DNA of 64,000 nucleotides from an uncultured delta proteobacterium (GCA_963716725.1 CAVQUB010000008.1:160001-224000), one strand, 5' to 3'; positions 6,889-49,213 are shown, counted from the first letter of the stretch. Made by a program: numbers and translations. The notes: generated by a model not told the origin, from the letters alone.

Positions 6889-6930
6889 TCAGTCGACGTG
6901 TCGGGCTCCGACGACTAACCTTCCCCTCCA

Positions 6931-9900: not shown

Positions 9901-11346
9901 GGCATCGGGGTCGAACACGGAGCCGTAGGATGGCGGCGCGTCGCCGAGTTGCCCTTCGAGGCGGGTCGCGGCTACCAGTCGGTCACGGGCGAGACGCCCC
10001 ACGAGCGTTTCTTGAGCGTGAAGGGCGCGCCCGAGGTGGTGTTGCCGTCGTGCACCAAGCGACTGCACGACGGGACCCGGGCGCCGCTCGACGAGGTCAC
10101 CCTGGGCCAGCTCGCCGAGCGCGCCTCGGAGCTCGCGCGGCGCGGCCTGCGGGTGCTCGCCGTTGCCGGGCGCAGTGTCGCCGAAGAAGACCGCCTCGAT
10201 CCGACCCGGCTCGTCGGGCTCTGCTTCGTCGGCCTGATCGCCTTCAGCGATCCCGTTCGCCGTTCGGCGCGCGCCGCCCTCGACCAGCTGCGCGTCGCCG
10301 GGGTCGAGACGGTGATGATCACCGGCGACCATCCCAGCACGGCAGAGACCGTCGCCCGCGAGCTCGATCTGCTCTCTGGCAAGCGCACCATGACCGGGAA
10401 GGAGCTGGCGGAGCTGTCGGAGGAGCAGCTCGACGCTCGCATCAGCAGCATCAGCGTCTTTGCGCGGCTCACGCCCTCACAGAAGGTGCGCATCGTTCGC
10501 GCACTGCAGCGCGCCGGCCACTGCGTCGCCATGGTGGGCGACGGCTCCAACGACGCCCCGGCGATCCGCCTTGCGAACGTTGGCATTGCCATGGGCGAGC
10601 GCAGCACCAGCGCCGCCCGCGGTGCGGCTGACGTCGTGATCACCGACGAGCGCATCGAGACCATCGTCGACGCCATCGTCGAGGGCCGCGCGATGTGGGC
10701 CAGCGTGCGCGACGCGGTGTCGATTTTGATCGGCGGAAATCTCGGGGAAATCGGCTTCTCTGTCGCGGCGGGCTTGGTTGACGGGCGCTCTCCGCTCAAC
10801 GCGCGTCAGCTCTTGCTGGTCAACATGCTGACCGACGTCGCGCCGGCCATGGCCATCGCCTTGCGCCCACCGTCGGCGGCGACGCTCGCGTCCCTCGCCA
10901 GCGAAGGACCGGACGCGTCGCTTGGCGATGCGCTGACCCGCGACATCGTCTCGCGCGCCATCGTGACAACGGCGGGCGCTGGCGCGGCCTTCCTGGTGGG
11001 GCGGTTCACCGGCACGAGAGAGCGCGCCACGACCGTCGGGTTGCTCGCGCTGGTCGGCACTCAGCTCGGACAGACCATCACCTCGGGCGGGTACAGCCGA
11101 CCGGTGCTGCTCACCAGTGTGCTGTCGTCCGCGGCGCTGGCGGCGGTGGTGCAGACCCCGGGCCTGAGTCATTTTTTCGGCTGCCGCCCCCTGGGTCCGC
11201 TGGGTTGGGCTACCGCCATCGGCGCGTCGGCCCTGGCCACGGGGGCCGCGGTTCAATATCCGCAAGTGATCGAGAAGGTTGCGCAGCGCTTGAAGTTGGT
11301 CGACGTGCTGCCGCAGCGTGACCGAGATCGCTTGCCGGCCCCCTGA
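6931..11346 (+). CDS. Very large cation-transporting P-type ATPase (CtpH/CtpI-like)
   Basis: SLTGES, VPEGLP, DKTGTLT, KGAPE, TGDH and GDGSNDAPA motifs; ~600-aa N-terminal extension. Confidence 0.9.
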   Translation: MSERPSLASVVAGIKEAFSARKRRAWMGRTRAHVELRELSGDELERFATLLREAAARMAQVKWVEVNPHLRRAVIEIERGAYELEDLIELVEAAERSAAVDKASFSETAADHPADAEPLHQLGLGAALDMVGFGLGTVLRLSPLPKSGVAASVAAAAAVVRAVPRLRQGLDQALGTQRAEITLSSVISLAQGAAQRPVASLVDLVHKAALLREARTRQDTWEAREAELCSAPFEHDLGRARIDPRPVPLPRGPIEEYADRAWVVSLGGFAVSFLTTRSVQHAVAALFGALPKPARMGRDVFAAELGRALAARRVLVNDPDVLRRLDRIDCLVIQGDLVARDRYEVTDVVTVEGVSRRETRSRALELFEPEHPVSVIRRGNLVLGPFTRLGASLPPALEERATEWSRRGELCLALARDGRVEGLVALSMIPQTGIEELITAAHEAQMRVVIASNDESVLEGLNVDDAIPFGDGLPSGIRRLQREGRSVMLVATGRASGVGAADCAIGLVRAGEPPPWGAHLVSSDDLSDVRFVLHACEAAKKVAKQSVNVALGAAAVGTLVSAGGVVSMTTSRVFTVVNTASLIAMGNGIRNSAALERRALPPPRDRTPWHALDAHGVMAKLGTSETGLSKSEAQARKRPAVGDKPALLELSEAVTDELFNPLAPLLAAGAGLSAVVGSVADAGMVGGVVVLNAVVGGVQRFRTERAIRRLATDTTRRARVRRSGEVVTIDGSDLVRGDVVLLEPGDVVPADCRMVGTESVEVDASSLTGESLPVKKNPASAYDPEIADRASMLYEGTSIAAGRATAVVVATGDETEARRGSNTSRRDIATSGVEVRLRSLINLTGPVALGAGAALITVGALRGRGLKEVVSSGVSLAVASVPEGLPLLATAAQLAAAERLSKRGALVRNARNIEALGRVDVLCVDKTGTLTEGRIDLRRVSDGVSDAATEELTSRELVVLAAALRASPELDNAASFDPLDGALHRAAGQQGIGVEHGAVGWRRVAELPFEAGRGYQSVTGETPHERFLSVKGAPEVVLPSCTKRLHDGTRAPLDEVTLGQLAERASELARRGLRVLAVAGRSVAEEDRLDPTRLVGLCFVGLIAFSDPVRRSARAALDQLRVAGVETVMITGDHPSTAETVARELDLLSGKRTMTGKELAELSEEQLDARISSISVFARLTPSQKVRIVRALQRAGHCVAMVGDGSNDAPAIRLANVGIAMGERSTSAARGAADVVITDERIETIVDAIVEGRAMWASVRDAVSILIGGNLGEIGFSVAAGLVDGRSPLNARQLLLVNMLTDVAPAMAIALRPPSAATLASLASEGPDASLGDALTRDIVSRAIVTTAGAGAAFLVGRFTGTRERATTVGLLALVGTQLGQTITSGGYSRPVLLTSVLSSAALAAVVQTPGLSHFFGCRPLGPLGWATAIGASALATGAAVQYPQVIEKVAQRLKLVDVLPQRDRDRLPAP

Positions 11347-14731: not shown

Positions 14732-15018
14732 AGAGCTGCGCGCACGGGCTGCGCCTCGACGACGCGACGCGCGCTCAGGCACGCAAGCGGCTCTTGTCCG
14801 TTCGCGGCCACGTCGAGGGCGTGATGCGCATGCTGGACGACGAGTCGGTCTACTGCGTCGACGCGCTCAAGCAGATCAAGGCCATCAACGGCGCGCTGGA
14901 GAAGGTTGGCTCGCTGATCTTGCAGAGCCACCTGCGCGACCATGTGGTGACTGCGGCCGAGCGCGGTGACGTCGACGTGATCGTGGGCGAGTTGATGGAG
15001 GTGATGAAGTACCGATGA
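14728..15018 (+). CDS. csoR: Metal-sensing transcriptional repressor CsoR
   Basis: [14 protein letters not shown]...YCVD..KQ...SHLRDHV signature. Confidence 0.92.
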
Positions 15019-17240
15019 CTCGCACGCTCGAGGTCGGCGTCCAGGGCATGACCTGCGCGTCTTGCGTGGGGCGGGTGGAGCGTGCGCTGAAGAAGCAGCC
15101 CGGAGTGACGGCGGCCAGCGTGAACCTCGCCACGGAGCGGGCGAGCATCGAGTACGCGCCCGAGTCGACGAGCCCGGACCGACTCGAGGCGGCCATCGTC
15201 GACGCTGGATATACGCCGGTGGACTTGGGGCCCGGGCCGGACGCGCTCGCCGAAGCAAAGGAGCGGGAGCAGGCCGAGCTGAGGCGAGAGGTCGTGATCG
15301 GAGCGGCGCTGTCGGTGCCACTGATGGTCGTGGCCATGGTGCCCATGCTGGTCAGCGCGATTCACGAGGCGCTCCCGCATCAGGTCTGGGGTTTGATCCA
15401 GCTTGGATTGGCCGCGCCGGTTCAGTTCTGGGTGGGCCGGCGCTTCTACCGCCAGGCCTGGTCCGAGCTCGTTCACAAGAGCCCGGGCATGAACACGCTG
15501 GTCATGCTGGGCTCGTCGTCGGCCTTCGGCTACTCGCTGCTCGCCCTGGTGGCGCCGTCCATATTTCCGGCGGGCACTGCCCATCTGTACTTCGAGGCGG
15601 CGGCCGTGATCATCACCCTGGTGCTCTTCGGCAAGCTGCTCGAAGCGCGGGCCAAGGGCCGGACCTCTGCCGCCATCACCAAGCTGATGCAGTTGCAGGT
15701 CAAGACCGCTCGAGTGCTACGTGGCGATGACATCGTCGAGGTGCCCATCGAGCGAGTGACTCCGGATGACCATGTGCAGGTGCGACCTGGTGAGCGCGTG
15801 CCGACGGACGGTGTCGTGATCGAGGGCCAGAGCTGGGTCGACGAGAGCATGCTGACCGGTGAGCCAGTGCCGGCCGACAAGAGGGTGGGCGCCGAGGTCG
15901 TCGGAGGCACGGTCAATCAGAACGGCACCTTCGTGTTCCGCGCGAGCCGAGTCGGCAGCCACACGGTGCTCGCGCAGATCATTCGGATGGTCGAGGAGGC
16001 CCAGGCGTCGAAGCCGCCCATCCAAGCCACTGCGGATCGCATCGCCGCTGTCTTCGTGCCGGTGGTGCTCGGCGCGGCGTTGACCACCTTCGCGCTCTGG
16101 ATGCTGGTCGGTCCCCAGCCGCGGCTCTCCCACGCTTTTGTTGCGGCCGTGAGCGTGCTGGTGATCGCGTGCCCCTGCGCCATGGGTCTGGCCACTCCCA
16201 CGGCGATCATGGTGGGCACCGGGCGGGGCGCGGAGCTCGGCATCTTGTTTCGGCAAGGCGCCGCCCTCGAGACCTTGGCTCACGCCGACACCGTGCTGCT
16301 CGACAAGACCGGCACCGTCACCAAAGGGCGCCCCGAGTTGACGGATCTGGAGGTCTTCGGCATGTCGGAGGAGGAGGTGCTGGCGCTGATCGCGGCGGTC
16401 GAGGACTCGAGCGAGCATCCGATCGCGCGGGCCGTGGTCGAGGCGGCGCGAGCTCGCGGCGTGGCCTTCGTGCGCGCCACCGGGGTGACGGCGGAAGCCG
16501 GGTTTGGCGTACAGGCGCGGGTCGACGGGCGACTGGTGCAGATTGGAGCGGATCGCTACATGGCGCGCCTGGGCGTCGACCTCGCGGCCGGGCGTGAGCG
16601 AGCCGAAGAGTTCGCTCGCGATGCCAAGACGCCGATCTTTGCAGCGGTCGACGGCGCTCTCGCCGCGCTGTGTGCGGTCGCAGATCCGCCAAAGGACGAG
16701 AGCGCGCAGGCCATCCGCGAGCTTCGCGGACTGTCGCTCGAGGTCGCGATGCTGACCGGCGATCATCGGAGCACCGCCGAGGCGGTGGCGCGGCGCGTGG
16801 GGATCGAACGCGTGGTGGCTGAAGTATTGCCCGCCGACAAAGCGGCGGAGGTGGCGCGGTTGCAAGGCGAGGGCCGCCGCGTGGTGTTCGTGGGCGACGG
16901 CATCAATGACGCACCGGCTTTGGCGCGCGCGGACGTGGGCATCGCCATCGGGACCGGCACCGACATCGCCATCGAGGCCGGGGACGTGATCCTGATGAGC
17001 GGCGAGCTGGCCGGGGTGGCGCGGGCGATCCGGCTTTCGAAGCGAACGCTGGGCACCATCCGACGCAACTTCTTCTGGGCCTACGCCTACAACGTCGCGC
17101 TGATCCCCGTTGCGGCCGGCGCGCTCTACCCGGTGTTTGGGCTGCTCCTGAACCCAATGTTCGCGGCGCTGGCCATGAGCCTCTCGAGCGTGTTCGTGGT
17201 CACGAACAGCCTACGTCTCAGGAAGTTCGCGGACTCGTGA
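15015..17240 (+). CDS. copA: Copper-translocating P1B-type ATPase
   Basis: [33 protein letters not shown] and MSLSS motifs. Confidence 0.95.
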
Positions 17241-28383: not shown

Positions 28384-28497
28384 GGTCCCACCCCCAACTC
28401 AGGGCCGGGAGTCTATTCCCCTGGCGGCAGATTGCACGCACCTTCGGGATCCCCTGGAAAAGTGGACTGGTTTGCCTGCCGGGCGCATGATTCGGGC

Positions 28498-29907
28498 ATG
28501 CGGATCACCAGGGCGGCGGTGGTGTTTTCGGCGGCGGGTTACGTGCTGTCGGGCTGCGGTGCCCGGACCGGCGACGATCTCTTCGGGGACGCTACCGGCG
28601 GCGTCGGTGCCAGCGGCGGCGTCGGTGCCAGCGGCGGGTTTGGCGGCGGTGGGTTCGGAGGCGGCGGGTTCGGTGGCACGCCCTTCGGAGGCGGCGGGTT
28701 TGGCGGCGGTGGGTTCGGCGGAACGCCCTTCGGAGGCGGCGGATTCGGTGGCGGCGGGTTCGGCGGCACGCCCTTCGGCGGCGGCGGATTCGGCGGCGGC
28801 GGATTCGGTGGCGGTGGGTTCGGCGGCGGCGGGTTCGGCGGCACCTCCGGCGACTGCTGCGTGCAGCACGCATTTCCGGGCTGCTCCAATCAGTACGTCG
28901 CGGCCTGCGTGTGCAAGCAAGATCCCTATTGTTGCCAAGAGCAGTGGGACGGCGTGTGCGTGGATGAGGTCGACTCCCTGGGCTGTGGCAACTGCGGTTC
29001 CGGCGGATTCGGTGGCACTCCTTTCGGTGGCGGCGGATTCGGTGGCACTCCTTTCGGTGGCGGCGGATTCGGTGGCACTCCTTTCGGTGGCGGCGGATTC
29101 GGCGGCACGCCCTTCGGTGGCGGTGGCACGGGCGGCGGACCCAATTGCGGCGGCGTGCCCTGTCCTTCGAAGCAGGTCCCCAACACTCCGATCACCTTGC
29201 CGGGCTGCTGCCCTCCCACTCCGCCCTACGCGTGCGGCCTCGATACGTCGCCGATCTCCCAGTACGTGCCGCTGCCGAACGCGTGCATGCAGAAGAACCA
29301 ACCGGGCAAGATCGATCCCTCTTGCCCGCAGCAGCCAACGCCGGTGGGACAGCTGCAAGGGTGCTGCAAGCCGAGCGGCATCTGCGGAACTTGGTTCGGC
29401 GCCATCGACCTGGGCTGTGTCGAGACCTGGCAGTACGGCGGTCCGCCGCCCGTGAAGTGCGGCGGTGGCAGCGGTGGTGCCGGTGGCGCCGGCGGTGCCG
29501 GCGGCTTCGGCGGCTTCGGCGGCTTCGGCGGCTTCGGCGGCTCCGGTGGCAGCGCCGGTTTCACGGGCGATTGTTGCGCTACTCAGCAGGGCCCTGGGTG
29601 CGGCGATCCGAGCGTGTGGCAGTGCGTGTGCCCGAAAGACTCGTACTGTTGCACCAGCAACTGGGACAGCATCTGCGTGGAAGAGGTCACCAGCCTGGGC
29701 TGCGGCAAGTGCGGCAGCGGAGGGTCGGGAGGTGTCGCTGGTGGTGGCGGGACGGCCGGGGTCGGCGGCGCGCCGCTCTGTAATCCGTCGTTCTGTCCCA
29801 AGCCGGGACCCCTGCAGCCCTGCTGCGTCTCGTCGAACGGACCTTGCGGAGTTGTCACGCCCAATGGCTGTCTGCCGTACTCGTTTGGCGGAGCCGGCGG
29901 GCAGTGA
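28498..29907 (+). CDS. Gly/Phe-repeat, Cys-rich lipoprotein with two ten-Cys modules
   Basis: Lipobox LSGC-GAR; GGGGF and GGTPF repeats; two CC..C..CVC..D.YCC..WD..C..EV.SLGC..C modules. Confidence 0.8.
   Translation: MRITRAAVVFSAAGYVLSGCGARTGDDLFGDATGGVGASGGVGASGGFGGGGFGGGGFGGTPFGGGGFGGGGFGGTPFGGGGFGGGGFGGTPFGGGGFGGGGFGGGGFGGGGFGGTSGDCCVQHAFPGCSNQYVAACVCKQDPYCCQEQWDGVCVDEVDSLGCGNCGSGGFGGTPFGGGGFGGTPFGGGGFGGTPFGGGGFGGTPFGGGGTGGGPNCGGVPCPSKQVPNTPITLPGCCPPTPPYACGLDTSPISQYVPLPNACMQKNQPGKIDPSCPQQPTPVGQLQGCCKPSGICGTWFGAIDLGCVETWQYGGPPPVKCGGGSGGAGGAGGAGGFGGFGGFGGFGGSGGSAGFTGDCCATQQGPGCGDPSVWQCVCPKDSYCCTSNWDSICVEEVTSLGCGKCGSGGSGGVAGGGGTAGVGGAPLCNPSFCPKPGPLQPCCVSSNGPCGVVTPNGCLPYSFGGAGGQ
28597..29140 (+). 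repeat. Coding tandem repeats (15-bp GGGGF, 30-bp GGTPFGGGGF) flanking a Cys module
   Basis: Direct repeats such as ggtggcactcctttcggtggcggcggattc x3. Confidence 0.9.
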
Positions 29908-29910
29908 ACT

Positions 29911-30345
29911 TCAGTGGGTGACTGCCGGTCGCGGCGTGTGCTCGACGATCGACACCGGCCAGGCGGCGGGGTCACGTTGCCACTCGCCGCTGCCGTCCTC
30001 GCGCAGATCGACTCGGAGCTCGTAGTTGCCGACCACCGGCGGCACCGGCAGTCCGAGCGAACGCGTGCGAAAGCGCGGTGTCGCCGATTTGAACTCGAAT
30101 GGCTCGGTGTAAGACTCGAGCGCGACGTCACTCACCATGGCGAGGCGCACGTGAAACGTCCGTTGGATCTCCTTCGGCGCGATCAAGAAGTAGGCGTGGA
30201 GCTCGAGCGGCAAGAATCCGCCGGGTGGCTGCGGTGCGTTCGGAGGGATGTTCAGCTGCTCGACGAGATTGAACAGCGTGACGTTGTTCGAGTGCTGGTC
30301 CAGTGAAGAACCGCTCGAGACGGCGAGCAAGTAACAGCGGGGCAC
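29911..30345 (-). CDS. Hypothetical beta-sandwich protein (DUF6941-like), last gene of the sdh-like operon
   Basis: GTG start 2 nt after the sdhB-like stop; VPRCYLLAVSSGSSLDQHSNNVTLFNLVEQL...GNYELRV. Confidence 0.65.
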   Translation of the reverse strand: MPRCYLLAVSSGSSLDQHSNNVTLFNLVEQLNIPPNAPQPPGGFLPLELHAYFLIAPKEIQRTFHVRLAMVSDVALESYTEPFEFKSATPRFRTRSLGLPVPPVVGNYELRVDLREDGSGEWQRDPAAWPVSIVEHTPRPAVTH

Positions 30346-30347
30346 GC

Positions 30348-31082
30348 TCAGCGCCGTAGTAGCGTCGCGAGCCAGCGTCGAGTGGTCTCGCCTTCGAGGC
30401 TCAGGATCGAGTCGAAGAGCGGGATGCGCTCGGGGCACACCTCGACGCAAACCCGCGCCTTGCCGCACTTCGCCACGCCGCCGGCGTTCATGCTGGCGTC
30501 GAGGCGGGCGGGCTTTCGGGGTCCACCCGCCGAGAGCTCGTTGGCGAGCCGCGCCTCGTTGAGCGCAGCGGCACCCACGAAGCGCTTGCCGGAGGTCTCG
30601 GGGCAGGCCTCGAAGCAGGCCCCGCAATTCGTGCAGCGATCGATCTCCGACAATGCGAAGGTCGTGAGAGGCGCCGCGGCCGGGGGCTCGTCGAGCCAGG
30701 CGCCGAGCCGCTGCCCGGCGTCGCGCAGGGGGCTGCGGTCGACGATCAAATCGCGGATCAGGGGGAACTTCGACATCGGTGCGAGCACGATGGGGCCGCG
30801 CTTCGGTCGCACGCTCTCGACCGAAGTGCGGCACGCGACGGCTGCGTGCGCGTTCACCAAGATCGTGCATGCGCTACAGCGAGCCGCCCGACACGCAGAC
30901 TCGAAGGCGACCGGCGCGACCTGGTGTCCCTCGGTGGTCACAGGGTCGTCGGCGATAGCGTGCAGCAGAGTCGCGACGCTGTCTCCGCTTCGAATCTCGA
31001 CCGAGAAGTCTTCGAAGCGTCGGCTCTCGAGCGCACCGGGCGAGTCCTGACGCTGCACGCGGACCACGACTCTCTGGCTCAC
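30348..31082 (-). CDS. sdhB: Succinate dehydrogenase/fumarate reductase iron-sulfur subunit homolog
   Basis: CRAARCSAC..C, CTNCGACFEACP and CGKARVCVEVCP cluster motifs; FPLIRDLIVDRS. Confidence 0.85.
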   Translation of the reverse strand: MSQRVVVRVQRQDSPGALESRRFEDFSVEIRSGDSVATLLHAIADDPVTTEGHQVAPVAFESACRAARCSACTILVNAHAAVACRTSVESVRPKRGPIVLAPMSKFPLIRDLIVDRSPLRDAGQRLGAWLDEPPAAAPLTTFALSEIDRCTNCGACFEACPETSGKRFVGAAALNEARLANELSAGGPRKPARLDASMNAGGVAKCGKARVCVEVCPERIPLFDSILSLEGETTRRWLATLLRR

Positions 31083-32458
31083 GTGCCCTCCTTTTCCGCG
31101 ATGCGCCGTGCGAGCACCAGCGCAGCCTCGAAATCCCACCAGGCACGGAGCTCGGTATTGGCGGCGCGCGAGCGGTCGCGCAGGTGAACCTTCGCGGCCC
31201 GCTCTTCGATGTCGTCCAGAGTGCCCTTCAGCTCACCTCGAGCCACCACTGTTCTGAGGCGCTGACTCGCGGCATGAAGGGCATCGCCCTGGTCGTTGCG
31301 GGACAGCAGCGACGCCAGCGCGGTCTCGGCGCGCTTCCGGGCCGCCTTCGAACTCTTGTGCAGATCCTTCTCCCGGGAGCCGTCGCGGTAGCCTCCGATG
31401 GCGTCGGCCACGCGGGTCGAACCGTGAAGCGCGGCGAGCAGCGGCGTGCCCGGGAGCGTTCCGGCGCCGAAGTAGGCGCCGATCACCCCGCCCACGGCGT
31501 AGAGCCCCGGGACGGCGGTCGCGTGGTCCGTCGAGACCTCGAGCCCGCCCAGGGTGCGATCCGGCGCGGCCATCACCACGATGGGCTCCGAATAGGGATC
31601 GGCGCCTGCGGCCTGCGCGTAGGCCTCGAGGGCGGAGCCCGCGGCGCGGCGCAGCGGCGCGCGGTCGAGCCGGGTGAGGTCGAAGAGGCCCGCGTCGAGG
31701 TCGGCGTTCATGCTTTCGAGTCGACGCGGCAGTCGGCGCACGAAGCCGGCGGCTCGGTAGCAGAGCGGATGCACGCTCACGCTTCCTGGCGCCACCACGC
31801 TCGCGCCACGTCGCAACGCGAGCCCCGTGACTCCGCCGAGGCCGCCCGGCGCGAGCGTATCGTGCATGAAGAGCCCGGTGTGACCGCCGCTCGCCAGGCA
31901 GACGCCGTTGGCTTCGAAGCTGCGGAGCTCACCGGTCGCGAAGCACTGCGCGACCACGCCGCAGGCACTTCCGTCGTCGTCGAGGACGAGATCGACCACG
32001 GTCCAGCCAACGTACCGATGGAGTTGGCCCGAGACCTCGTATTTGGCCAGCAGGGCCGAGAGCCGGCGGCTGAGATGTCGAGCCGTCATGCTCTCAGCGT
32101 GAACGCTGCGCGCCACGCTGGAGCCTCTCAGCTGCGACAGTACCAGGTCGCCGTCGCGCTCGCGTTCGAAGGGGATCTCGAGGCGTTCGAGGCGCTCGAG
32201 CTGGGCCGACGCTCCGTTGGTCATCGACTCGAGAAAAGGGCGCGAGCCTGGGCCCGCGAGGGCGAGCAGGTCGTCGAGATGTCGGCTCGGGCTGTCGTCG
32301 GCGCCTCGTGCGGCGTCGAAACCATCATGGCGGTGGGTCGACTCGGTGTGTTCGGCCGGTTCGCGCGCCAGCAGCAACACCGGGATGGCGGCCGCCGCGA
32401 GGGCGAGCGCGGTGGCCTGGCCCGCGATGCCCTCGCCGACTACCAGCGCGGGCTTCAC
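31079..32458 (-). CDS. Short, catalytically degenerate SdhA-like flavoprotein (459 aa)
   Basis: VVGEGIAG Rossmann motif, LASGG, VHP, LGGL.V and VPGLYAVG; lies between sdhC and sdhB homologs. Confidence 0.8.
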   Translation of the reverse strand: MKPALVVGEGIAGQATALALAAAAIPVLLLAREPAEHTESTHRHDGFDAARGADDSPSRHLDDLLALAGPGSRPFLESMTNGASAQLERLERLEIPFERERDGDLVLSQLRGSSVARSVHAESMTARHLSRRLSALLAKYEVSGQLHRYVGWTVVDLVLDDDGSACGVVAQCFATGELRSFEANGVCLASGGHTGLFMHDTLAPGGLGGVTGLALRRGASVVAPGSVSVHPLCYRAAGFVRRLPRRLESMNADLDAGLFDLTRLDRAPLRRAAGSALEAYAQAAGADPYSEPIVVMAAPDRTLGGLEVSTDHATAVPGLYAVGGVIGAYFGAGTLPGTPLLAALHGSTRVADAIGGYRDGSREKDLHKSSKAARKRAETALASLLSRNDQGDALHAASQRLRTVVARGELKGTLDDIEERAAKVHLRDRSRAANTELRAWWDFEAALVLARRIAEKEGT

Positions 32459-33141
32459 GTGGTGCCCCAGGGCGCGGCCGTGCCGGTCGCCAGGTGGATC
32501 ACCGTGGTCGCGCCGAGGGCGAAGAGCACGGCGCTGAATAGCGCACAGGCGATCCGCAACCGCTCGAGGGATTTCAGCGAGCGCACCAGGCCGAAGCTGG
32601 CGCAGAACCCCACCACGCCGTTGCCCAAGTGGTACGCTGTGGCTGCGATCCCGATCAGGTACACCGCGGCGTAGAAGGGAACGCCGAGGGGTCCCGTGCT
32701 CGACAGGCTGGCCACGAGTTCGCCGTGCAAATCGGCACTCGCCGCCTGTCCAATCACGAGCTTCACGCGCGTCTGCCACAGATGCCCAACGACGAACAGG
32801 AGCACGACCACGCCGGTTGCGCGTTGCAGCACCCAGGCCAGGTTGCCCGAGTACGGGTAGGCAGAGACGTTCGCGCGTGACTTCGCGGTGAGGGCTAGTC
32901 CGACTCCGGCGTGGACCAACAAGGGTAAGCCGATCAGCAACGCTTCGATGGTCATTCGCGTCGGGGTGAGGCGCGCGAGCGCACCCGAAAACGCCTCGGG
33001 ACCACGCAACGCTTGGGTCATGGCCACCAGGTGCGCGACCACGAAGACGCCCAAGGGCACCACGCCGCACAGCGACATCACGCGCCGCTGCACGAATTCG
33101 CGTCGATTCGTCTCGACCAGAGGCGGTCGGTCTTCACTCAC
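32455..33141 (-). CDS. sdhC: Succinate dehydrogenase diheme cytochrome b558 subunit homolog
   Basis: SLCGVVPLG.F...HL, LQRATG and four TM His (VAHL, LVHA, VGHL, AYHL). Confidence 0.85.
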   Translation of the reverse strand: MSEDRPPLVETNRREFVQRRVMSLCGVVPLGVFVVAHLVAMTQALRGPEAFSGALARLTPTRMTIEALLIGLPLLVHAGVGLALTAKSRANVSAYPYSGNLAWVLQRATGVVVLLFVVGHLWQTRVKLVIGQAASADLHGELVASLSSTGPLGVPFYAAVYLIGIAATAYHLGNGVVGFCASFGLVRSLKSLERLRIACALFSAVLFALGATTVIHLATGTAAPWGTT

Positions 33142-33177
33142 GTCGATGGGGTCGACCGTATCGCAGGCAGGGTGGGC

Positions 33178-34303
33178 TCAGGAAGGCCCCTGGGTGGCAC
33201 AGCCAAACAGCACGTCGACTTGACCCTTGGTGTTCTTCACCATCGAGCAGGTGCTCGGGCAGAGCAGGATCTTGGTGGGGGCCGCGTCGTTGTCGTAGTA
33301 CCAGCCGTTGCCCGCGGCGGGGCACGCCGCCTGATTGGCGTATTTGGGCCAGGTCTCGGGCTGGCCGCCCAGCGGCGTGAACGTGACGTTCACCTTCTGG
33401 TGATCGACCACGCCGCCTTCGGGCGTCGGGATCAGGTACTCGCAGGCGAGGGCGGCTCCGCGGATCTTGTTGAGCGCGTCGATGAACTGCTGACCGACGT
33501 TGCCAGAGGTATCCACGATGAACGCGGCGTTCGTGCCGCCCGCTTGCGCGATCTGGTTCAGATTCGAGAGCGCCGAGCCGACGCCGATCACGAAGGTCAG
33601 GATCTTGGGTGAGCCGTTGACGCCCTGTTGCGCGATCCCCGAAGCAGCGCCCACGCTGCTCGAGCAGTCGTTGGGCTGCCCGTCCGTCGCGAGCACGATC
33701 ACGACGACGTGGTCGGGGTTCTTTATCGCGTGCGTCTGCGCATACGACAGCGCACCTTGCATCGCCGGCACGGTGGGCGTGCCGCCATTCGGGCTCGTGC
33801 CGCCCAGCGCGCCGATCACGCTGCCCGCGTTGCCCGGCAGCACATTGATGGGCACGCTCGGGTTCGAGTAAGTCGACGGCGAACACTGGGGCGAATCGGG
33901 GAAGAAGTCCAAACCCACGCCGATGCCCGCGGACTGCGAGTCGTTCACGAATGAAGTGATGGCGCTGACCGTGCTCGTCCACTTGCCGCCGCCCATCGAG
34001 CCGGACTTATCGAGCATGATGTAGATGTCGAGCGGGAGCGGTTCGGCCTTCTGCGTCTCCGTCGCGCAGGCGTTGCCGTCGGTCAGCGCCCCGTCGCCGC
34101 TCCCCGAGTCGATGAGCAAGCCGCCGCCGGAGCCGGTGGTCGCCCCGCTTCCTGATGAGCCAGCACCGGATCCGCCGGCAGCGGTCGCGCCACCGTCGCC
34201 CCCCGCAATGCTGCCTCCGTCTTCGGCCGCACCACACGCCACCGCCAACGCGATGCTGCCTGCCGCCGCCCTGAGCCGAGATCCCGACGAGTCGCTTGGC
34301 CAT
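33178..34303 (-). CDS. VWA-domain lipoprotein (apparent +1 frameshift in the signal peptide near 34277)
   Basis: MIDAS DKSGS, TPT and LATDGQP; AGGAGA RBS before ATG 34303; removing one base gives MAKRLVGISLRAAAGSIALAVAC. Confidence 0.8.
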
Positions 34304-34357
34304 GTCGTTCTCCTGCACACAGGGTACTCTAACGGCGCCGCCTGCGGCGCCCCGCCG

Positions 34358-36205
34358 ATGTCTCGTCCCTCCTTTCTGTCCACGCGGCAGATTTCCGTTC
34401 TTGTCGTCCTCGTTGCCATTGGCTGCGGCGGGTCGTCTGCGAACGGACATGCGCCCCAGGCCAACGTCGCGGCGTCGACCGCGGCGCAGAGAGAGTTCCG
34501 GGAGATCCACCGGCTTTGGACCACGTTGGCGCCCGAGCAGCGCGCGCGTCTCGGGCCCGCCCTCGACGCATTCGTGAAGCGTCACCCTGATGACCGGCGT
34601 GCGCGCCGGGCGCGGATCTACCGGGCTTGGATCCATGTTCAGCAGGGGCGCGTGGACGAGGCGCGTGTCCTGGTGAAGGAAGTTCGGGCGGGCCCCAGCG
34701 GCGTCGTTCGGGATTTCGCCGCGGTAGTCGAGGCGGCCATCTTGCTCAGGGAGGGCAAACCCGACCAGGCACTCAGCGTGCTGTCGCCGCTCGAGGGCAA
34801 GATCATCGATCCCGAAGAGCGATTCCTGTTTGGTGAGCAACGGGTCATCGCAGCCCTCGGTGCCCGCCGGCCCGCGCTCGCACTCCGCGCCATGCGCGAC
34901 TGGCTTGGCGAGACTGCGCCCGAAGAACGAGACGCCGTTCGCGGGCGGTTGCTGGAGCTCACCCGGCAAATCCCCGCCGAACCGCTGTTTCGCGCGTTCA
35001 CCGAGATGGAGGCGGAGAAGAGCGAGGTCACCGCCAATCCCGATCGTGCCCGCGCCCGCGAGTTCCTGATCCCGCTCACCGCTGAGCGGCTGTCGGAGCT
35101 TGCCATTCGACGCGGCGATGGCGGACTCGCCCGCAAGCTGCTCGACAGCGGTCATCCGGTCTTTCGGCGTGGCGTGCGCGGTCAAGAGCTCGCTCGCATC
35201 GCCGCAGCAGGTTCGGTGCTGCCGCGAGTCGTGGGCCGATCTCTGGGGCTCGTGCTCAGCATCGGGAGCGCGGAGCAGCGCCGTCGCTCTGCCCAGGCTG
35301 CTGCGGGGGTGGCGCGCGCGCTCGGTTTGCCTGCGTCGGCAGCCGAGCGTGACGCGGTGCAGCTCCTGACCAGCGAGGACGACGGTTCTGAACACGGCGT
35401 CGCGCATGCGCTCGCAGAGCTGGCGGGCGAGGGCGCGACTATTCTGATCGCCGGAGTCGACCCGCCAACGGCGGCGGCGGCCGCTCGGTACTCGGCGCAC
35501 ACCGGCATCCCGGTGTTGCTGCTGGCCGACGCAGCCCCCCGGGGCGGTCCGGAGCTGGTGCTGGCCGAGACCGCGGCGCGGGAGGCTCAGACCCTGAACG
35601 AGGGCGCGCGTGCCCTCGGCCTGGACCCCGCCGCTCGCGTCGGGCCCGAGGGAGTCTCCTGCGATGTCGCAGCGAGCGCCGCAGGGCAGCCGCGTTTCCC
35701 GGTTCAGCTCTGGAAGACCGAGCGAGTCGAGGGTGTGCTCGTGCAGGGCGATGCCGCGTGCGCCCGCGACGTCGCGCGCGAGTCTCAAGAAACGGGTCGG
35801 CGTGTGACCCTCGGGCTCGGGCTCGAGGCTGGCGAGGTGTTTGCGGTGCTCGATCCGTTGCAGCCGCGCTTCGCTCTGGCTGCGGGGTCGTTTCCAGATC
35901 GGCCCGGGGCTACTGCGCCGCAGGCTCAACAGAAGCTCGTGGCGCAGTCTGGTCACGCACCGAGCTGGTTCACCACACTGGGTCACGACGCTGCGCTGCT
36001 CGCGCAGGTCGCGCTCGGAGGCTTTCCGCTCGACCGGGCCGACGACGCTCGGGTCGTCGCGGAGCTGCACCAGCGCGCGGTGCTCGAGCTGTCTCGCGCC
36101 GAGGCTCCGCTTTGGTCCAGCGACAAGCGTGGGTTTTTCGGAGCGCGGGTCCTTCCGCGCACGCTCACGGCGGTGGTGTGGACTCGAGGCAAGGCGCCGC
36201 CATGA
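34358..36205 (+). CDS. Lipoprotein with TPR-like N-terminus and periplasmic-binding-protein-like C-terminus (LpoA/LppC-like)
   Basis: Lipobox AIGC; helical N-region; LGLVL...G, PSWFTTLGHDAA pattern. Confidence 0.6.
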   Translation: MSRPSFLSTRQISVLVVLVAIGCGGSSANGHAPQANVAASTAAQREFREIHRLWTTLAPEQRARLGPALDAFVKRHPDDRRARRARIYRAWIHVQQGRVDEARVLVKEVRAGPSGVVRDFAAVVEAAILLREGKPDQALSVLSPLEGKIIDPEERFLFGEQRVIAALGARRPALALRAMRDWLGETAPEERDAVRGRLLELTRQIPAEPLFRAFTEMEAEKSEVTANPDRARAREFLIPLTAERLSELAIRRGDGGLARKLLDSGHPVFRRGVRGQELARIAAAGSVLPRVVGRSLGLVLSIGSAEQRRRSAQAAAGVARALGLPASAAERDAVQLLTSEDDGSEHGVAHALAELAGEGATILIAGVDPPTAAAAARYSAHTGIPVLLLADAAPRGGPELVLAETAAREAQTLNEGARALGLDPAARVGPEGVSCDVAASAAGQPRFPVQLWKTERVEGVLVQGDAACARDVARESQETGRRVTLGLGLEAGEVFAVLDPLQPRFALAAGSFPDRPGATAPQAQQKLVAQSGHAPSWFTTLGHDAALLAQVALGGFPLDRADDARVVAELHQRAVLELSRAEAPLWSSDKRGFFGARVLPRTLTAVVWTRGKAPP

Positions 36206-36672
36206 ACGAGCCAAGGCTCGAAATCGAGCTACCGACCCGGCGTGCGACCACTCGGTTGGCGGCTCGCGTTGCGCCGCACCTCGAAGCGGGCGATCTCTTG
36301 GTGCTCTCCGGCGCGCTGGGTGCCGGCAAGACCTTCTTCGTGCGCGCTCTCTGCCGCGCGCTTGGGCTTCCGGCGAGTGTCCCGGTCACGAGCCCGACCT
36401 TCTCACTCATTGTCGAGCACGACACGCGACCTCCGCTGGCGCACGCGGACTTGTACCGCCTGTCCACCCCGAACGACGTCCAAGGCCTCGGGCTCGATCA
36501 CCAACGCGATGATGGCCGATTGGTCGTCGTGGAGTGGGGTGAGCCGTTCATCGCGCTTCTCGGCGGGGACGCCCTGATACTGGCGCTGGCCCTCGATCCG
36601 CGGCGCGCGAGTTTCAGCGCCACCGGCTCGCGCTCGCGGCGAATTCTGGCGGACTTGGCCCAAAGCGGTTAG
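36202..36672 (+). CDS. tsaE: tRNA threonylcarbamoyladenosine biosynthesis ATPase
   Basis: GALGAGKT, SPTF, HADLYRL and VEWG motifs. Confidence 0.95.
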   Translation: MNEPRLEIELPTRRATTRLAARVAPHLEAGDLLVLSGALGAGKTFFVRALCRALGLPASVPVTSPTFSLIVEHDTRPPLAHADLYRLSTPNDVQGLGLDHQRDDGRLVVVEWGEPFIALLGGDALILALALDPRRASFSATGSRSRRILADLAQSG

Positions 36673-36687
36673 GTGTCACGGCTGGGT

Positions 36688-37497
36688 ATGGCCGTGACGG
36701 CAGCGCAACAGACCGGGACGGGGCCGAGCGTGATCGGGGATCTGATCCGAACCCCGGTCGCCACGCTGGAGAAGGTTGGGCAGTTCGTGTTGCTCACGAC
36801 CCGCACGGTCAGCTGGATGATCCGGCCGCCCTACCGTCTCGGACAGCTGCTCTCGGCCATGGATTTCGTCGGGGTGCAGTCGGTGTTCATCGTCTCGCTC
36901 ACCGGCATCTTCAGCGGCATGGTGCTGACTCTTCAGACCGTGAACAGCCTGCGGCAGTTCAGCGCCGAAGGCAGCGTCGGCGCCATCGTCGCGATCTCAC
37001 TCTGCCGGGAGATCGCCCCGGTGTTCAGCGCGCTGATGGTGACCGCCCGCGCCGGAAGCGCGATGGCCGCCGAGCTTGGCAACATGCGGGTGACGGAGCA
37101 GATCGACGCGCTCGTCACCATGGGCGTGAGCCCCGTGCAGTACTTGCTCTCGCCGCGCATGCTCGCAGCCGTGTTGATGGGACCGCTTCTGTGCGTGCTC
37201 TACGGTTCTGTCGGCATGGTCGGCGCTTGGATCGTCGCCGTGAAGTGGCTCAGCGTCGATCCCGGCGTGTTCGTCGCCAACATCGAGCGCTACTTGGAGC
37301 TCAAGGATCTCTGGATGGGCGTGTTCAAGTCCGCGATCTTCGGCTTCTTGATCTCGGCCATCTCGTGCAACCAGGGCTTCTACGCCAAGGGAGGCGCCCG
37401 CGGCGTGGGCATCGCCACCACCAAAGCCGTCGTGCAAAGCGCAGTGGCGCTCTTGATCGCGAACTACTTCATCACCGATTGGCTCACTGCGTTGTGA
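36688..37497 (+). CDS. mlaE: MlaE-family ABC transporter permease
   Basis: REIAP, ARAGSAMAAELG.M..TEQIDAL and GGARGVG.ATT motifs. Confidence 0.93.
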   Translation: MAVTAAQQTGTGPSVIGDLIRTPVATLEKVGQFVLLTTRTVSWMIRPPYRLGQLLSAMDFVGVQSVFIVSLTGIFSGMVLTLQTVNSLRQFSAEGSVGAIVAISLCREIAPVFSALMVTARAGSAMAAELGNMRVTEQIDALVTMGVSPVQYLLSPRMLAAVLMGPLLCVLYGSVGMVGAWIVAVKWLSVDPGVFVANIERYLELKDLWMGVFKSAIFGFLISAISCNQGFYAKGGARGVGIATTKAVVQSAVALLIANYFITDWLTAL

Positions 37498-45644: not shown

Positions 45645-47615
45645 GTGCCGGACCTGGACGCCAGCGTCGATTCAGAGCCTCGCCCCGAGTCCGGGCGCAG
45701 CCCGGCCGTGGTGGTCGGGGAGCCCGAGCCGCCGTGGCGATCCAAGCGCCGGAGATTGCGGCGCGCGCGCAAGGCCTTCGGCCTGTTTCTGCTCTTGGCC
45801 CCCGTGGTGGCCGTGGTGGCCATCGACGCTTCACGCAGAGCAGAGCTGCTGGGCACCTTTCAGGGTTACTACCGCTGGACCTACTTCGGCGCGGTGGTGG
45901 AGAGCCTCGTCTTGTGGGGCACCCTGCTCTACGCGGCCGCGCGGCGCAGCGGCTGGGCGCGATGGCTCGCCGCCGCGCTCTTCGTCGTGGGGATCACCTT
46001 CTCGTTCGGGGGTCAGGCCTACTTCTACTCCCAGTACCACGCCTACCTGAACGTCGACGTCTCGGTGTTCGCGTCCAACTTCATGGACAGCGTGATGAAC
46101 CAGCTCTTTGCCGACATCGGGAATTATCTGAAGGCGAAGGCTCCGCCACTCATCGCTGCCATCGTGATGTTGGTGCTCGCCCGTCGCGTGATCCGGCCCC
46201 GGCGCATCCCGGGCATCGTGGCCTGCTACGTCGCGCCCGTCCTCGTGATCGCGTCGTTCTTCATCCCGACCCAGCACCGCCACATTCAGGCAGCCACCCC
46301 CGATGTGCTTTACCTGAACGCCGTGGGTGGCTTGATCCGCACTCAACTCGGGCTCACGGACCAGTCGAACCAGCTTCGTCCCCGGGCCCGGGAGTCCCTG
46401 CCGGTCGAGACGCTCACGGGCAAGCCCCACTCGCCGCGCAACGTCGTGCTCGTGATCCTGGAGAGCGTGCGCGCGGACGCCGCCTGCATCGACCACGATC
46501 CGGAGTGCCAGCGGACTGGGGCCTCGAACCGCCTCTTGCCGAAGCGCTTTGGCCTCAACCAGATGCGCTCTCTCGACTCGTCGACGGCCATCTCACTCGC
46601 GGTGTTGTGGGCAGGGCTCTTGCCGACCGAGGACCGCGAGACGCTGCACACCTGGCCGCTGCTCTTCGACTACGCCCACGCCGCCGGGTGGGACACCGCC
46701 TACTGGACCAGCCAGAACATGATGTTCGGCAACGCTCGGCTGTGGGTGAAGAACCTGGGAGTCAGCAAGTTCATCGCCGCCACCGATCTCGACCCCACCG
46801 CCGATCTCGACATGGGCGCCCCGGAACACCTGCTCGCCGATCATGTCAACCGCGAGATCGGCGGGCTCAAAGAGCCCTTCTTCGCCGTCATTCACCTGTC
46901 GAACGTGCACTATCCCTATCACATCGACCGAGACGGGCCGCTGCCCTTCCAGCCGTGGACGACCAGCAAGGCGCCCGACGAAAACCCCTACTTCTTCAAC
47001 TACTACCAGAACTCGGTCCACCAGCAGGACCTGCACGTCGCGAAGATGCTCGAGCACCTCCGCTCGACGGAGCCCGGCAAGCGCACCGCGGTGATCTACC
47101 TGTCCGACCACGCAGAGGCGTTTCGTGAGCACGGTCAGATGGGGCACACCTTCAGCGTATTCGATGAAGAGATCCACGTGCCCGCGTGGGTGGACGCACC
47201 CGATGGCATCTTGACCGACGAGCAGGCGAAGAACCTGGCCGCCAAGAAGGACGCCTTCGTGTTTCAGGTCGACGTCGCCCCGACCGTCCTGGATCTCATG
47301 GGCCTCTGGGACGAACCGAGCATCGCCAAGTACAAGACCAAGATGCCGGGTCACAGCCTGCTTCGCCCCGAGCTCACGACCCAGGCGCTGCCGATGACGA
47401 ATTGCGCTGGCGTGTGGAGCTGTGCATTCGAGAATTGGGGCTACATGAAGCAGAACATGAAGCTCGAAGCGCGCGCCTGGGACCGAGGCTGGCACTGCTA
47501 TGACGTCGCGGCCGATCCCGAGGAGTCGAACCCTCTCCCGCTCGGCCGCTGTGGCGAGCTCGAGGGCCTGGCCATAAAGACCTTCGGACGACTGCCAGGG
47601 AAGAAGCCGGACTGA
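45645..47615 (+). CDS. Membrane-anchored sulfatase-like hydrolase/transferase (LTA synthase/EptA superfamily)
   Basis: TM helices, NVVLVILESVRAD, HYPY, SDHAE and GH motifs. Confidence 0.85.
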   Translation: MPDLDASVDSEPRPESGRSPAVVVGEPEPPWRSKRRRLRRARKAFGLFLLLAPVVAVVAIDASRRAELLGTFQGYYRWTYFGAVVESLVLWGTLLYAAARRSGWARWLAAALFVVGITFSFGGQAYFYSQYHAYLNVDVSVFASNFMDSVMNQLFADIGNYLKAKAPPLIAAIVMLVLARRVIRPRRIPGIVACYVAPVLVIASFFIPTQHRHIQAATPDVLYLNAVGGLIRTQLGLTDQSNQLRPRARESLPVETLTGKPHSPRNVVLVILESVRADAACIDHDPECQRTGASNRLLPKRFGLNQMRSLDSSTAISLAVLWAGLLPTEDRETLHTWPLLFDYAHAAGWDTAYWTSQNMMFGNARLWVKNLGVSKFIAATDLDPTADLDMGAPEHLLADHVNREIGGLKEPFFAVIHLSNVHYPYHIDRDGPLPFQPWTTSKAPDENPYFFNYYQNSVHQQDLHVAKMLEHLRSTEPGKRTAVIYLSDHAEAFREHGQMGHTFSVFDEEIHVPAWVDAPDGILTDEQAKNLAAKKDAFVFQVDVAPTVLDLMGLWDEPSIAKYKTKMPGHSLLRPELTTQALPMTNCAGVWSCAFENWGYMKQNMKLEARAWDRGWHCYDVAADPEESNPLPLGRCGELEGLAIKTFGRLPGKKPD

Positions 47616-47662
47616 TCCGCGCGGCCCGCTTCGTCCTGCGCGCCGCCCGATACGAGGAGACG

Positions 47663-49213
47663 ATGACCGCCCACGAGCCCTTTCCATCGCTTCTGATTGG
47701 TCCCACGGGCATCGGCGCCCAGGGCAGCTTCGCCGAGGCCCAAGCGGCCTATCTGGATCCCGATCCCGCGGAGGTGGCCGAGCTTGGTCGCCTGCTGCGC
47801 GACAAGAACGCCGGGGTGGTCGCGCACTTCTATATGGATCCGGAGCTCCAAGGCGTGCTCGCAGCGACCGACTGGCCGCTGATCCACATCTCAGACTCCC
47901 TGGTGATGGCGGATCGCGCGGTCGAGATGGCCAAGGCGGGCGCCAAGGCCATTGTCGTGCTCGGCGTGGACTTCATGAGCGAGAACGTCCGCGCCATGCT
48001 CGACGCGGGCGGGTTCTCCGAGCTGCCGGTGTACCGCGTGGCCGACCAAGCCATCGGCTGTTCGTTGGCCGACAGCGCCGAGGCGCCCGCCTACGGCGCG
48101 TACCTGACCCTGGCCAGCAAGACACCGAAGTCGCTCCACGTCGTGTACATCAATACCAGCCTGCGCACGAAGGCCTACGCGCACTCGCTCGTGCCGACCA
48201 TCACCTGCACCTCGTCCAACGTCGTCCGGACTGTGCTCACCGCGTTTGCGCAGGTCCCGGGCCTTCACGTCTGGTTCGGTCCGGACACCTACATGGGTCA
48301 GAACCTGGCTCGGCTCTTCGCCTCACTGTGCGAGCTCAGCGACGACAAGATCCGCGCGCTTCACCCGGAACACGACCGCGCGAGCATCGCGGCGCTGCTG
48401 CCGCGCTTCCACTACTTCGAGCAGGGCAGCTGCATCGTGCACCACATGTTCGGCGCCGCCGTCGCCGAGCGCGTGCGCACCGAGTACCGAGATGCCTTCG
48501 TCACGGCGCACCTCGAGGTACCCGGTGAGATGTTCGGCGTGGCGCTCGAAGCCCAGCGACGTGACGCCGGAGTGGTTGGCTCGACCTCGGACATCTTGGG
48601 CTTCATTGGCCAGAAGGTCGACGCCGCCGCTGCCGGTGGAGCACCTGCCCATCTCCGCTTCGTGCTCGGCACCGAAGCCGGCATGATCACCAGCATCGTG
48701 CGCCGCGTGCGCCAGACGCTCCGCGAGCTCGAAGGCCGCGGCGGACCGAGCGTCGACGTCGAGATCGTCTTTCCGGTGGCCAGCGAAGCGGTGGCCCTGA
48801 CCGGCGAGGCGGAGCTCGCCATCGTTCCCGGAGTCGCCGGCGGGGAGGGCTGCAGCACCGAAGGCGGCTGCGCCACCTGCCCGTACATGAAGATGAACAG
48901 CCTCGACGCTCTGCTGAGCGTGCTTGGTCGCGTCGACGTCGGCGCGCGCGCGTTGCTCGCGGGCCACGAGCCCAAGCACTACGCGGACACCATCGCCGGC
49001 AAGACCATGGCCGAGCTGGGTGGGCAGCCCATTTTGCACATGCGCGGCCTTGGAAAGCTGGGGCGCCTGCCAGATGCCCTGGTCGCCGACGTGCTCTCCC
49101 GGACGCCTGAAATCGCCCGTGTGACCGCCGCGCTGGGTCTCTTGCCCACATCAACCCCGCCGGTGCTCCCCGGTGCGCGGGAGTGCTCTCCAGTCGGGAC
49201 GCCACGCACTTAA
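47663..49213 (+). CDS. nadA: Quinolinate synthase
   Basis: AHFYMD, SDS, GVDFMSE, GCSLA, YINT, CTSSN, GPD, C.VH and CPYMKMN motifs. Confidence 0.92.
   Translation: MTAHEPFPSLLIGPTGIGAQGSFAEAQAAYLDPDPAEVAELGRLLRDKNAGVVAHFYMDPELQGVLAATDWPLIHISDSLVMADRAVEMAKAGAKAIVVLGVDFMSENVRAMLDAGGFSELPVYRVADQAIGCSLADSAEAPAYGAYLTLASKTPKSLHVVYINTSLRTKAYAHSLVPTITCTSSNVVRTVLTAFAQVPGLHVWFGPDTYMGQNLARLFASLCELSDDKIRALHPEHDRASIAALLPRFHYFEQGSCIVHHMFGAAVAERVRTEYRDAFVTAHLEVPGEMFGVALEAQRRDAGVVGSTSDILGFIGQKVDAAAAGGAPAHLRFVLGTEAGMITSIVRRVRQTLRELEGRGGPSVDVEIVFPVASEAVALTGEAELAIVPGVAGGEGCSTEGGCATCPYMKMNSLDALLSVLGRVDVGARALLAGHEPKHYADTIAGKTMAELGGQPILHMRGLGKLGRLPDALVADVLSRTPEIARVTAALGLLPTSTPPVLPGARECSPVGTPRT

Follow-up and report, generated by a model that had tools for sequence, protein, structure and literature searches.

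To our knowledge, complex II is among the most conserved of the respiratory enzymes, and the active site of its flavoprotein is treated as invariant. In the type B complexes, represented by SdhCAB of Bacillus subtilis and FrdCAB of Wolinella succinogenes, the genes follow the order C-A-B, and the same order is found in the locus described here, a four-gene operon at positions 29,911 to 33,141 of a 64,000-nucleotide stretch from an uncultured delta proteobacterium (GCA_963716725.1 CAVQUB010000008.1:160001-224000; the whole stretch is called the window below). Two accounts set out what the flavoprotein of complex II and of its relatives uses for catalysis. Dicarboxylates are bound between the flavin domain and the cap, with SdhA R286 serving proton transfer and R399 stabilising charge at N1/C2 of the flavin (PMC9557727). 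The covalent bond to the flavin lifts its potential by some 100 mV, an increase on which succinate oxidation depends (PMC10238741), and relatives whose flavin adenine dinucleotide (FAD) is non-covalent reduce fumarate and cannot oxidise succinate (PMC9557727).

Our analysis of the operon suggests, with a probability that we put at roughly 60%, that it is a functional paralogue of type B complex II in Polyangiaceae-like Myxococcota which does not interconvert succinate and fumarate and would instead act as a quinone-linked redox complex with another substrate. Its four genes are:

33141..32455, minus strand: gene C, GTG start, 228 amino acids, SdhC-like di-haem cytochrome b558-type anchor
32458..31079, minus strand: gene A, GTG start, 459 amino acids, SdhA-like flavoprotein
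31082..30348, minus strand: gene B, GTG start, 244 amino acids, SdhB-like iron-sulfur subunit
30345..29911, minus strand: gene D, GTG start, 144 amino acids, soluble protein with no Pfam family

Layout and conservation of the operon

A first-pass annotation, made by a model from the sequence alone, had described four translationally coupled genes and an uninterrupted flavoprotein frame of 459 residues, and both descriptions agree with the gene boundaries. The start of A overlaps the stop of C in a GTGA, the A/B junction is again a GTGA overlap with an AAGGAGG word just 5' of the start of B, and D starts two bases past the stop codon of B. The GC content at third codon positions (GC3) is 0.82-0.84 in all four frames, as in other genes of the window. 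The A frame has a long 5' extension, over which its GC3 is low (0.51, as opposed to 0.85 for the C frame over the same bases), and the 459-residue start is therefore taken as the true start, as the N-termini of the orthologues also indicate. The 64-kb window contains no canonical sdhCAB and no second copy of C, A, B or D. Scanning of positions 29300-37000 for promoters and terminators returned no promoter-like site and four terminator-like sites, for 3.4 expected.

Among 5.8 billion proteins, the relatives of A comprised one 99% identical copy, 11 short proteins (446-512 amino acids, 35-63% identity) and two fragments, to which an exhaustive profile search (10119 proteins at E<=1e-3, 425 at E<=1e-30) added three further short relatives. 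For B, there are 22 relatives of the operon type at 48% identity or more. A scan of genomes for related loci gave at least two confirmed cases, L001 and L002, among the 600 pattern matches listed. L001, from a Polyangiaceae metagenome-assembled genome (MAG), carries the same four genes in the same order and with the same GTGA overlaps, the encoded proteins being 65% (C), 63% (A), 70% (B) and 81% (D) identical to those of the window, and no frame is interrupted in either locus. The ratios of nonsynonymous to synonymous substitution (dN/dS, Nei-Gojobori) are 0.27 for C, 0.33 for A, 0.26 for B and 0.13 for D, rough values from this single pair, for which dS is near 0.9. The first-pass annotation had considered that orthologues might be full-length canonical SdhA proteins, or that dN/dS might lie near 1 with stop codons in relatives; the orthologues are short and non-canonical (14 rows of our alignment, forming one clade), and the ratios of 0.13-0.33 go together with the absence of stop codons in the L001 orthologue. 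Judging from the sequences, the operon is probably functional, is maintained by selection and is not decaying. At the second locus, L002 (Silicimonas algicola), the protein encoded at 8001-9104 is 29% identical to A over residues 5-337.

The electron wire and the flavoprotein

B exceeds the cut-off of the general SdhB/FrdB model TIGR00384 (95.5 bits for a cut-off of 88), and the 11 Cys of its 2Fe-2S, 4Fe-4S and 3Fe-4S motifs, all of which had been said to be kept, match the ligand positions of the clusters in Wolinella FrdB, and none of them varies in any of the 29 relatives aligned. C matches PF01127 with 25.9 bits and has five hydrophobic segments, predicted to be transmembrane helices, with one His in each (H37, H77, H120, H171 and H216). 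All five His motifs are kept in L001, the one orthologue read; the first pass had noted four transmembrane His. Type B anchors have five transmembrane helices and, on helices 1-4, four axial His for two haems. From this background and the match to the b558 family, the His of C are predicted to be haem ligands, although a phmmer search of C against the PDB gave no match and hence no residue-level alignment to a solved anchor.

The flavoprotein matches PF00890 (E 2.9e-25) and reaches the cut-off of no SdhA/FrdA model: with its best NCBIfam model, the Bacillus-type SdhA model NF006392, it gets 154 of the 855 bits required, and with TIGR01811 140 of 541. Residues were mapped on phmmer alignments of A with two solved structures, 1nek_A (E. 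coli SdhA) and 9lay_A (Chloroflexus Sdh). E39 of A occupies the position of His45, the covalent FAD ligand of E. coli SdhA (HTES for RSHT), D300 that of His354 (DRTLGG for HYMMGG) and T334 that of Arg399 (GTLPGTPL for NRLGGNSL), and the column of the cap Arg (SdhA R286) is a gap. The three altered motifs had been proposed in the first pass and reappear in these alignments to solved structures; H230, retained in an HPT motif as the equivalent of SdhA His242, had not been mentioned there. The cap interval has shrunk to 41 residues (225-265), compared with 81-104 in six full-length relatives in the alignment, and beyond its C-terminus A is shorter than the same proteins by another 54-81 residues, ESRGxH among them. 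The proposed deletion of the cap with its PRD Arg and the absence of the ESRGAH region are thereby borne out, with the addition that a stub of the cap remains. The Glu of the cap Thr-Glu pair aligns ambiguously in A, and its position is not conserved among the short proteins. Because A has no equivalent of the covalent His, of the cap Arg, of His354 or of Arg399, it is very unlikely, as far as alignments can tell, that this protein performs succinate or fumarate chemistry, and the earlier claim that it is not a succinate/fumarate enzyme fits all the sequence tests run.

The fold that remains appears to be that of a flavoprotein. A was modelled with AlphaFold2 on 29 aligned sequences, and the model has a predicted local distance difference test score (pLDDT) of 94.4 and a predicted template modelling score (pTM) of 0.93. 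Its best matches in the PDB are SdhA/FrdA structures, with template modelling (TM) scores of 0.82-0.92 by query and 0.61-0.74 by target for the top 12, a pattern that fits a protein in which the FAD and helical domains are kept and the two other domains are missing. In a set of 29 sequences that includes short, long and canonical forms, neither the GxGxxG glycines nor several other Gly/Ser/Thr columns vary, and because of this invariance, and in view of the modelled fold, we infer that A still binds FAD, non-covalently.

Around the old active site the short family shows a conservation of its own. Glu stands at the covalent-His column in 14 of 14 rows, and 10 of the 14 retain the HPT His (H230). 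The residual cap stub contains the word Y-R-A-G-G-F-x-R-x-L-P, which, like R301 of DRTLGG, is invariant in all 11 rows where these positions were compared. The positions conserved in the short family include E39, S40, R43, H60, R117, H120, R131, R132, Y234, R241, P244 and R301 with the LGG that follows. Residues 226-270, that is the stub and the stretch after it, have conservation values of 0.76-0.83 (0.67 over the whole protein), and the C-terminal helical domain is the least conserved part (0.42-0.59). Such a stub suggests a site that was remodelled rather than emptied, and uninterrupted frames, conserved positions and a stub that is among the best-kept regions together form the pattern of a working protein and not of a relic. 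The expression "catalytically gutted", used in the first-pass annotation, is somewhat too strong for a protein with a conserved stub and an invariant word.

The origin of the short flavoproteins was examined in an alignment of 152 sequences (the best 150 representatives of at least 430 amino acids, the family members and two NadB-like proteins), in which ten catalytic columns were tabulated and from which a tree was made with FastTree. The supports are local and many rows have an unusual composition; the two strongly supported groupings are trusted here and the fine order is not. The 14 short proteins, with identities down to 31%, form one clade (support 100), nested in a clade of 69 rows (support 100) that otherwise consists of SdhA-like proteins of 493-714 amino acids, nearly all of 570-714. 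Only 4 of these 55 other rows keep the covalent His (P0172, P0173, P0191 and P0222), and the remaining ones have Pro, Ala, Gly, Ser or Leu at that column; the names that these proteins bear are generic annotations. Canonical SdhA rows (H-H-S/T-E-R-R-H-R-R-H over the ten columns) and NadB rows (Q first) are in the other half of the tree. Since the short clade is nested among full-length SdhA-like proteins most of which lack the catalytic residues, the succinate site was lost first and the protein shortened later. Gaps at the cap columns also occur outside the short family, in 13 rows of the alignment that correspond to proteins of 440-485 amino acids (P0199, P0213, P0214, P0219, P0225, P0226, P0236, P0241, P0253, P0257, P0264, P0279 and P0287). 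All eight of those tested match NF006392 in two stretches, skipping roughly profile positions 240-340. Because the 13 fall in the other half of the tree, their loss of the cap is independent, and by this alignment cap loss is recurrent in the superfamily.

Protein D and the proposed function

D lies directly after B in both the window and L001. A search gave 363 homologues at E<=1e-3; every one of the 120 listed has an identity to D of 55% or more, nearly all are 139-153 amino acids long, and those named among them come from Myxococcota MAGs. Across 46 sequences 35 positions are invariant, and an invariant R91-x-R93-x-R95 places three Arg at alternate positions of one modelled strand. D has no hydrophobic segment. 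It is modelled as an immunoglobulin-like (Ig-like) beta-sandwich with a pLDDT of 80, falling below 50 at residues 13-26. Residues 12-32 are the most conserved stretch of the protein, yet they are the only part modelled with low confidence, and could be a segment that folds on a partner. Comparison of the model with the PDB by fold found generic Ig-like sandwiches only, the best being RhoGDI (E 1.2e-3, TM score about 0.5), and the D profile had no match among PDB sequences at E<=1.

The label "DUF6941-like" given to D in the first pass is not upheld, as D matches nothing in Pfam at E<=10 and 46 of its homologues match nothing at E<=1, the DUF6941 family (PF22091) included. A feature-based comparison in the ESM Atlas, which is a language-model lead only, does point in that direction (score 0.94, with 21 of 30 matches in DUF6941-type clusters), and in the named Atlas cluster nearest to D, 35% of members carry DUF6941. 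Two other ideas about D were rejected. An alignment by hhalign of D with the SdhA-like profile gave a probability of 0.3, which speaks against D being the detached cap or C-terminal domain of SdhA, and the 274-residue P0330, a member of a D cluster, has an extension that looks like a wrongly extended start and not like a fusion. A complex prediction of A, B and D with D as the partner (score 0.00, mark 0.32), run without controls, was used neither way.

In the complex that we propose, the membrane cytochrome b (C) would exchange electrons with the quinone pool, and the three iron-sulfur clusters of B would link those electrons to the flavin in A, which would be held non-covalently because Glu replaces the covalent His. 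The flavin site would have no lid, the cap being reduced to 41 residues, and would be free of the His and Arg that bind dicarboxylates, having gained the family-specific conserved stub HP-x-C-Y-R-A-G-G-F-V-R-R-L-P. With the lid and these residues lost, the substrate is probably something other than a C4-dicarboxylate, and an open flavin site of lower potential could react with a bulkier molecule or a protein partner. D, whose gene follows B directly and which is more conserved than the other three proteins, is likely a fourth subunit or partner and in any case the leading candidate for that role. The assembly of the complex, the direction of electron flow, the substrate and the role of D are points that we infer. 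The first-pass annotation had imagined a repurposed quinone-linked module with D as its partner; what speaks for it is purifying selection and conserved gene order.

Several observations weigh against a working quinone-linked complex of this kind. The short family has GG for GE in the GLYAxGE word and (T)PL for NSL, changes that could weaken the binding of the flavin. At the old catalytic columns there is free variation throughout the 69-row clade, which would also fit an unconstrained site, that is, a non-catalytic scaffold. Two of the electron-carrying subunits stay below the cut-offs of their more specific models, B with 190 bits for the Bacillus-type equivalog NF006391 (cut-off 244) and C with 84 bits for the b558 family TIGR02046 (cut-off 96), and the substitution ratios come from one pair of loci. 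D is tied to the operon by its place after B in the window and in L001 and by nine D matches that are on contigs of exactly the same size as that of a B match or an A-family protein (2015, 6189, 13154, 1022482, 3286, 2456, 45989, 1681 and 25126 nucleotides), but matching by equal contig size is indirect as evidence of linkage. Most of those D homologues that are on large contigs have no B or A counterpart, and since 363 matches of D compare with 22 operon-type relatives of B, D is probably not exclusive to this operon. A further coincidence of size, at 1020 nucleotides between the A fragment P0012 and the D match P0037, was dismissed as chance, as the genes cannot fit on such a contig.

One elaboration of the enzymatic reading, which we offer tentatively and consider unlikely as it stands, is a quinone-coupled enzyme with a new active site formed by the stub of A together with D. 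The loop of residues 12-32 of D would lie on the exposed flavin, the substrate would be a non-dicarboxylate or a macromolecule, and the full-length SdhA-like clade without the catalytic residues would represent earlier stages of leaving succinate chemistry.

The rival that survives best, an unlikely one in our judgement and still worth keeping in mind, turns A into a pseudo-enzyme, a non-catalytic scaffold that caps and stabilises B in a complex serving as an electron buffer of the quinone pool or as a redox sensor read by D or another protein. The free variation of the former catalytic columns would suit it, as would the fact that D and B (dN/dS 0.13 and 0.26), rather than A (0.33), are most constrained, and non-catalytic partner roles of complex II have been described, one being that of a fumarate reductase that binds the flagellar switch (PMC10238741). 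What the scaffold fails to explain is the fixation of polar residues around the old site in the short family (E39 in all 14 rows, R301 and the stub in all 11) and a stub region that is among the best-conserved parts of A. Nor would a mere lid need an intact FAD-binding fold with invariant dinucleotide-binding glycines.

It is considerably less probable, to the point of being hard to credit, that the complex is still a succinate:quinone or quinol:fumarate oxidoreductase whose lid and Arg are supplied in trans, for example by D. The retained H230 in most short-family rows, the three invariant Arg on one strand of D, and the preservation of the sdhCAB order and of the whole electron wire could all be read in this sense. 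Four needed elements have nevertheless disappeared together (the equivalents of the covalent His, the cap Arg, His354 and Arg399), a non-covalent flavin does not support succinate oxidation in the known relatives (PMC9557727, PMC10238741), and D has an Ig-like fold different from that of SdhA and no profile similarity to it.

A decaying duplicate of sdhCAB on its way to becoming a pseudogene would account for the loss from A of about 100-140 residues (cap interval and C-terminus) plus the catalytic residues, and for NCBIfam scores that are all far under the cut-offs, but this explanation is already contradicted and has very little left to recommend it: the frames are uninterrupted with normal codon bias and dN/dS of 0.13-0.33, the same short architecture recurs in 14 proteins down to 31% identity, the start/stop overlaps are kept in L001, and all 11 Cys ligands are invariant. 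Least credible of all is that A belongs to the known soluble enzymes of the fumarate reductase superfamily, L-aspartate oxidase (NadB) or another, and happens to lie beside iron-sulfur and cytochrome genes, since the match of A to NF005701 (116 bits), the non-covalent FAD of NadB and a NadA gene 15 kb away are outweighed by a cut-off of 528 bits, by NadB-type rows that keep a Q-H-S/T-E-R-R-H-R signature in the other half of the tree, and by the translational coupling of A to C and B through GTGA overlaps.

The interest of the operon goes beyond this locus. An iron-sulfur and haem wire that is under purifying selection while the succinate site has been dismantled must serve other chemistry or signalling. 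The family of the window is the most reduced branch within a sizeable clade that is uncharacterised and comprises dozens of 50%-identity clusters without the catalytic set; together with the independent losses of the cap, this implies that many metagenomic genes called "succinate dehydrogenase flavoprotein" may not encode succinate dehydrogenase, a point that matters for metabolic reconstruction. Should the substrate be found, it would define a new entry or exit point of the quinone pool. The literature searched contained no description of such an operon or of DUF6941, and nothing on Polyangiaceae combined with succinate dehydrogenase; a prior mention is possible, as a survey by Karavaeva and Sousa, reportedly a phylogenomic study of complex II, was outside the search.

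Neighbouring genes and comparison with known systems

Upstream of the operon, on the same strand, is one further gene that recurs in L001:

33178..34524, minus strand: gene of a vWA-domain protein (PF00092 VWA, E 4e-13), ending 36 nucleotides before C

Its orthologue is again directly upstream of C in L001 (about 6340-7281, plus strand; 86% identity over 313 amino acids) and is better conserved between the two loci than the four genes related to succinate dehydrogenase. The protein is probably a lipoprotein, judging by its N-terminal sequence, and the gene may be co-transcribed with gene C and those that follow. In the spacer between the two genes (33142-33177 in the window, 7282-7320 in L001) the word TGCGATACG(G/T)TCG is kept in both loci, and might be a regulatory or ribosome-loading element. 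Beyond the vWA gene, a divergent gene for an MlaE permease is found in the window and in L001.

Other features of the window are mentioned for completeness. A 491-codon open reading frame (ORF) at 28432-29907 (plus strand) converges on D. Its product is rich in glycine repeats of the GGFGG type, contains a Cys-rich module twice and matches nothing in Pfam; it resembles the repeat proteins that myxobacteria secrete. At 34007-36214, two ORFs of about 730 codons on opposite strands overlap almost fully, with GC3 of 0.77-0.78, and the plus-strand ORF, which alone was scanned, has no Pfam match. The gene for NadA (quinolinate synthase) is at 47504-49213 (plus strand), and no NadB was seen in the window; A itself does not resemble NadB at the catalytic columns. 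Two P-type ATPase genes (6919-11346 and 14970-17240, plus strand), one of them with a heavy-metal-associated domain, and between them a PAS histidine kinase with a receiver domain, are unrelated to the operon.

Among described proteins, NadB and the soluble fumarate reductases have in common with A the superfamily fold and the non-covalent FAD (PMC9557727), and the fold search with the A model returned 1knp and 2e5v among its matches. Unlike A, these enzymes have retained the cap and the His and Arg that bind dicarboxylates, and they have no SdhB/SdhC wiring. The other cap-less SdhA-like proteins of our alignment (P0219 and P0241, for instance) resemble A in the internal loss of the cap; in contrast to it, they score higher on SdhA models (308-536 bits, compared with 154) and most retain ESRGxH residues, with R and H both kept in 9 of the 13 rows, R only in 3 and neither in P0213.

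The resemblance to the type B complexes extends beyond gene order. Their single five-helix di-haem anchor of the b558 family is predicted likewise for C, the best NCBIfam models of A and B are the Bacillus-type NF006392 and NF006391, and in the PDB the best sequence match of A is Chloroflexus Sdh and that of B is Wolinella FrdB. The locus departs from these systems in three ways: A has lost the covalent His, the counterparts of His354 and Arg399, the larger part of the cap and the whole C-terminal domain; a fourth gene, D, is appended; and A, B and C all score under the equivalog cut-offs. Closest to A are the long SdhA-like proteins of the 69-row clade, metagenomic and uncharacterised, which match it at 160-290 bits (P0149, P0150 and P0014 among them). 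As in A, most of them have lost the covalent His and the catalytic columns are altered; moreover, the contig of P0014 has the same size as that of a D homologue, and the contig of P0160 the same size as that of a B homologue. They differ from A by a full-size cap and, usually, by the C-terminal ESRGxH, so that the short family of the window would be a later, shortened offshoot of this long clade in which Glu has become fixed at the position of the covalent His.

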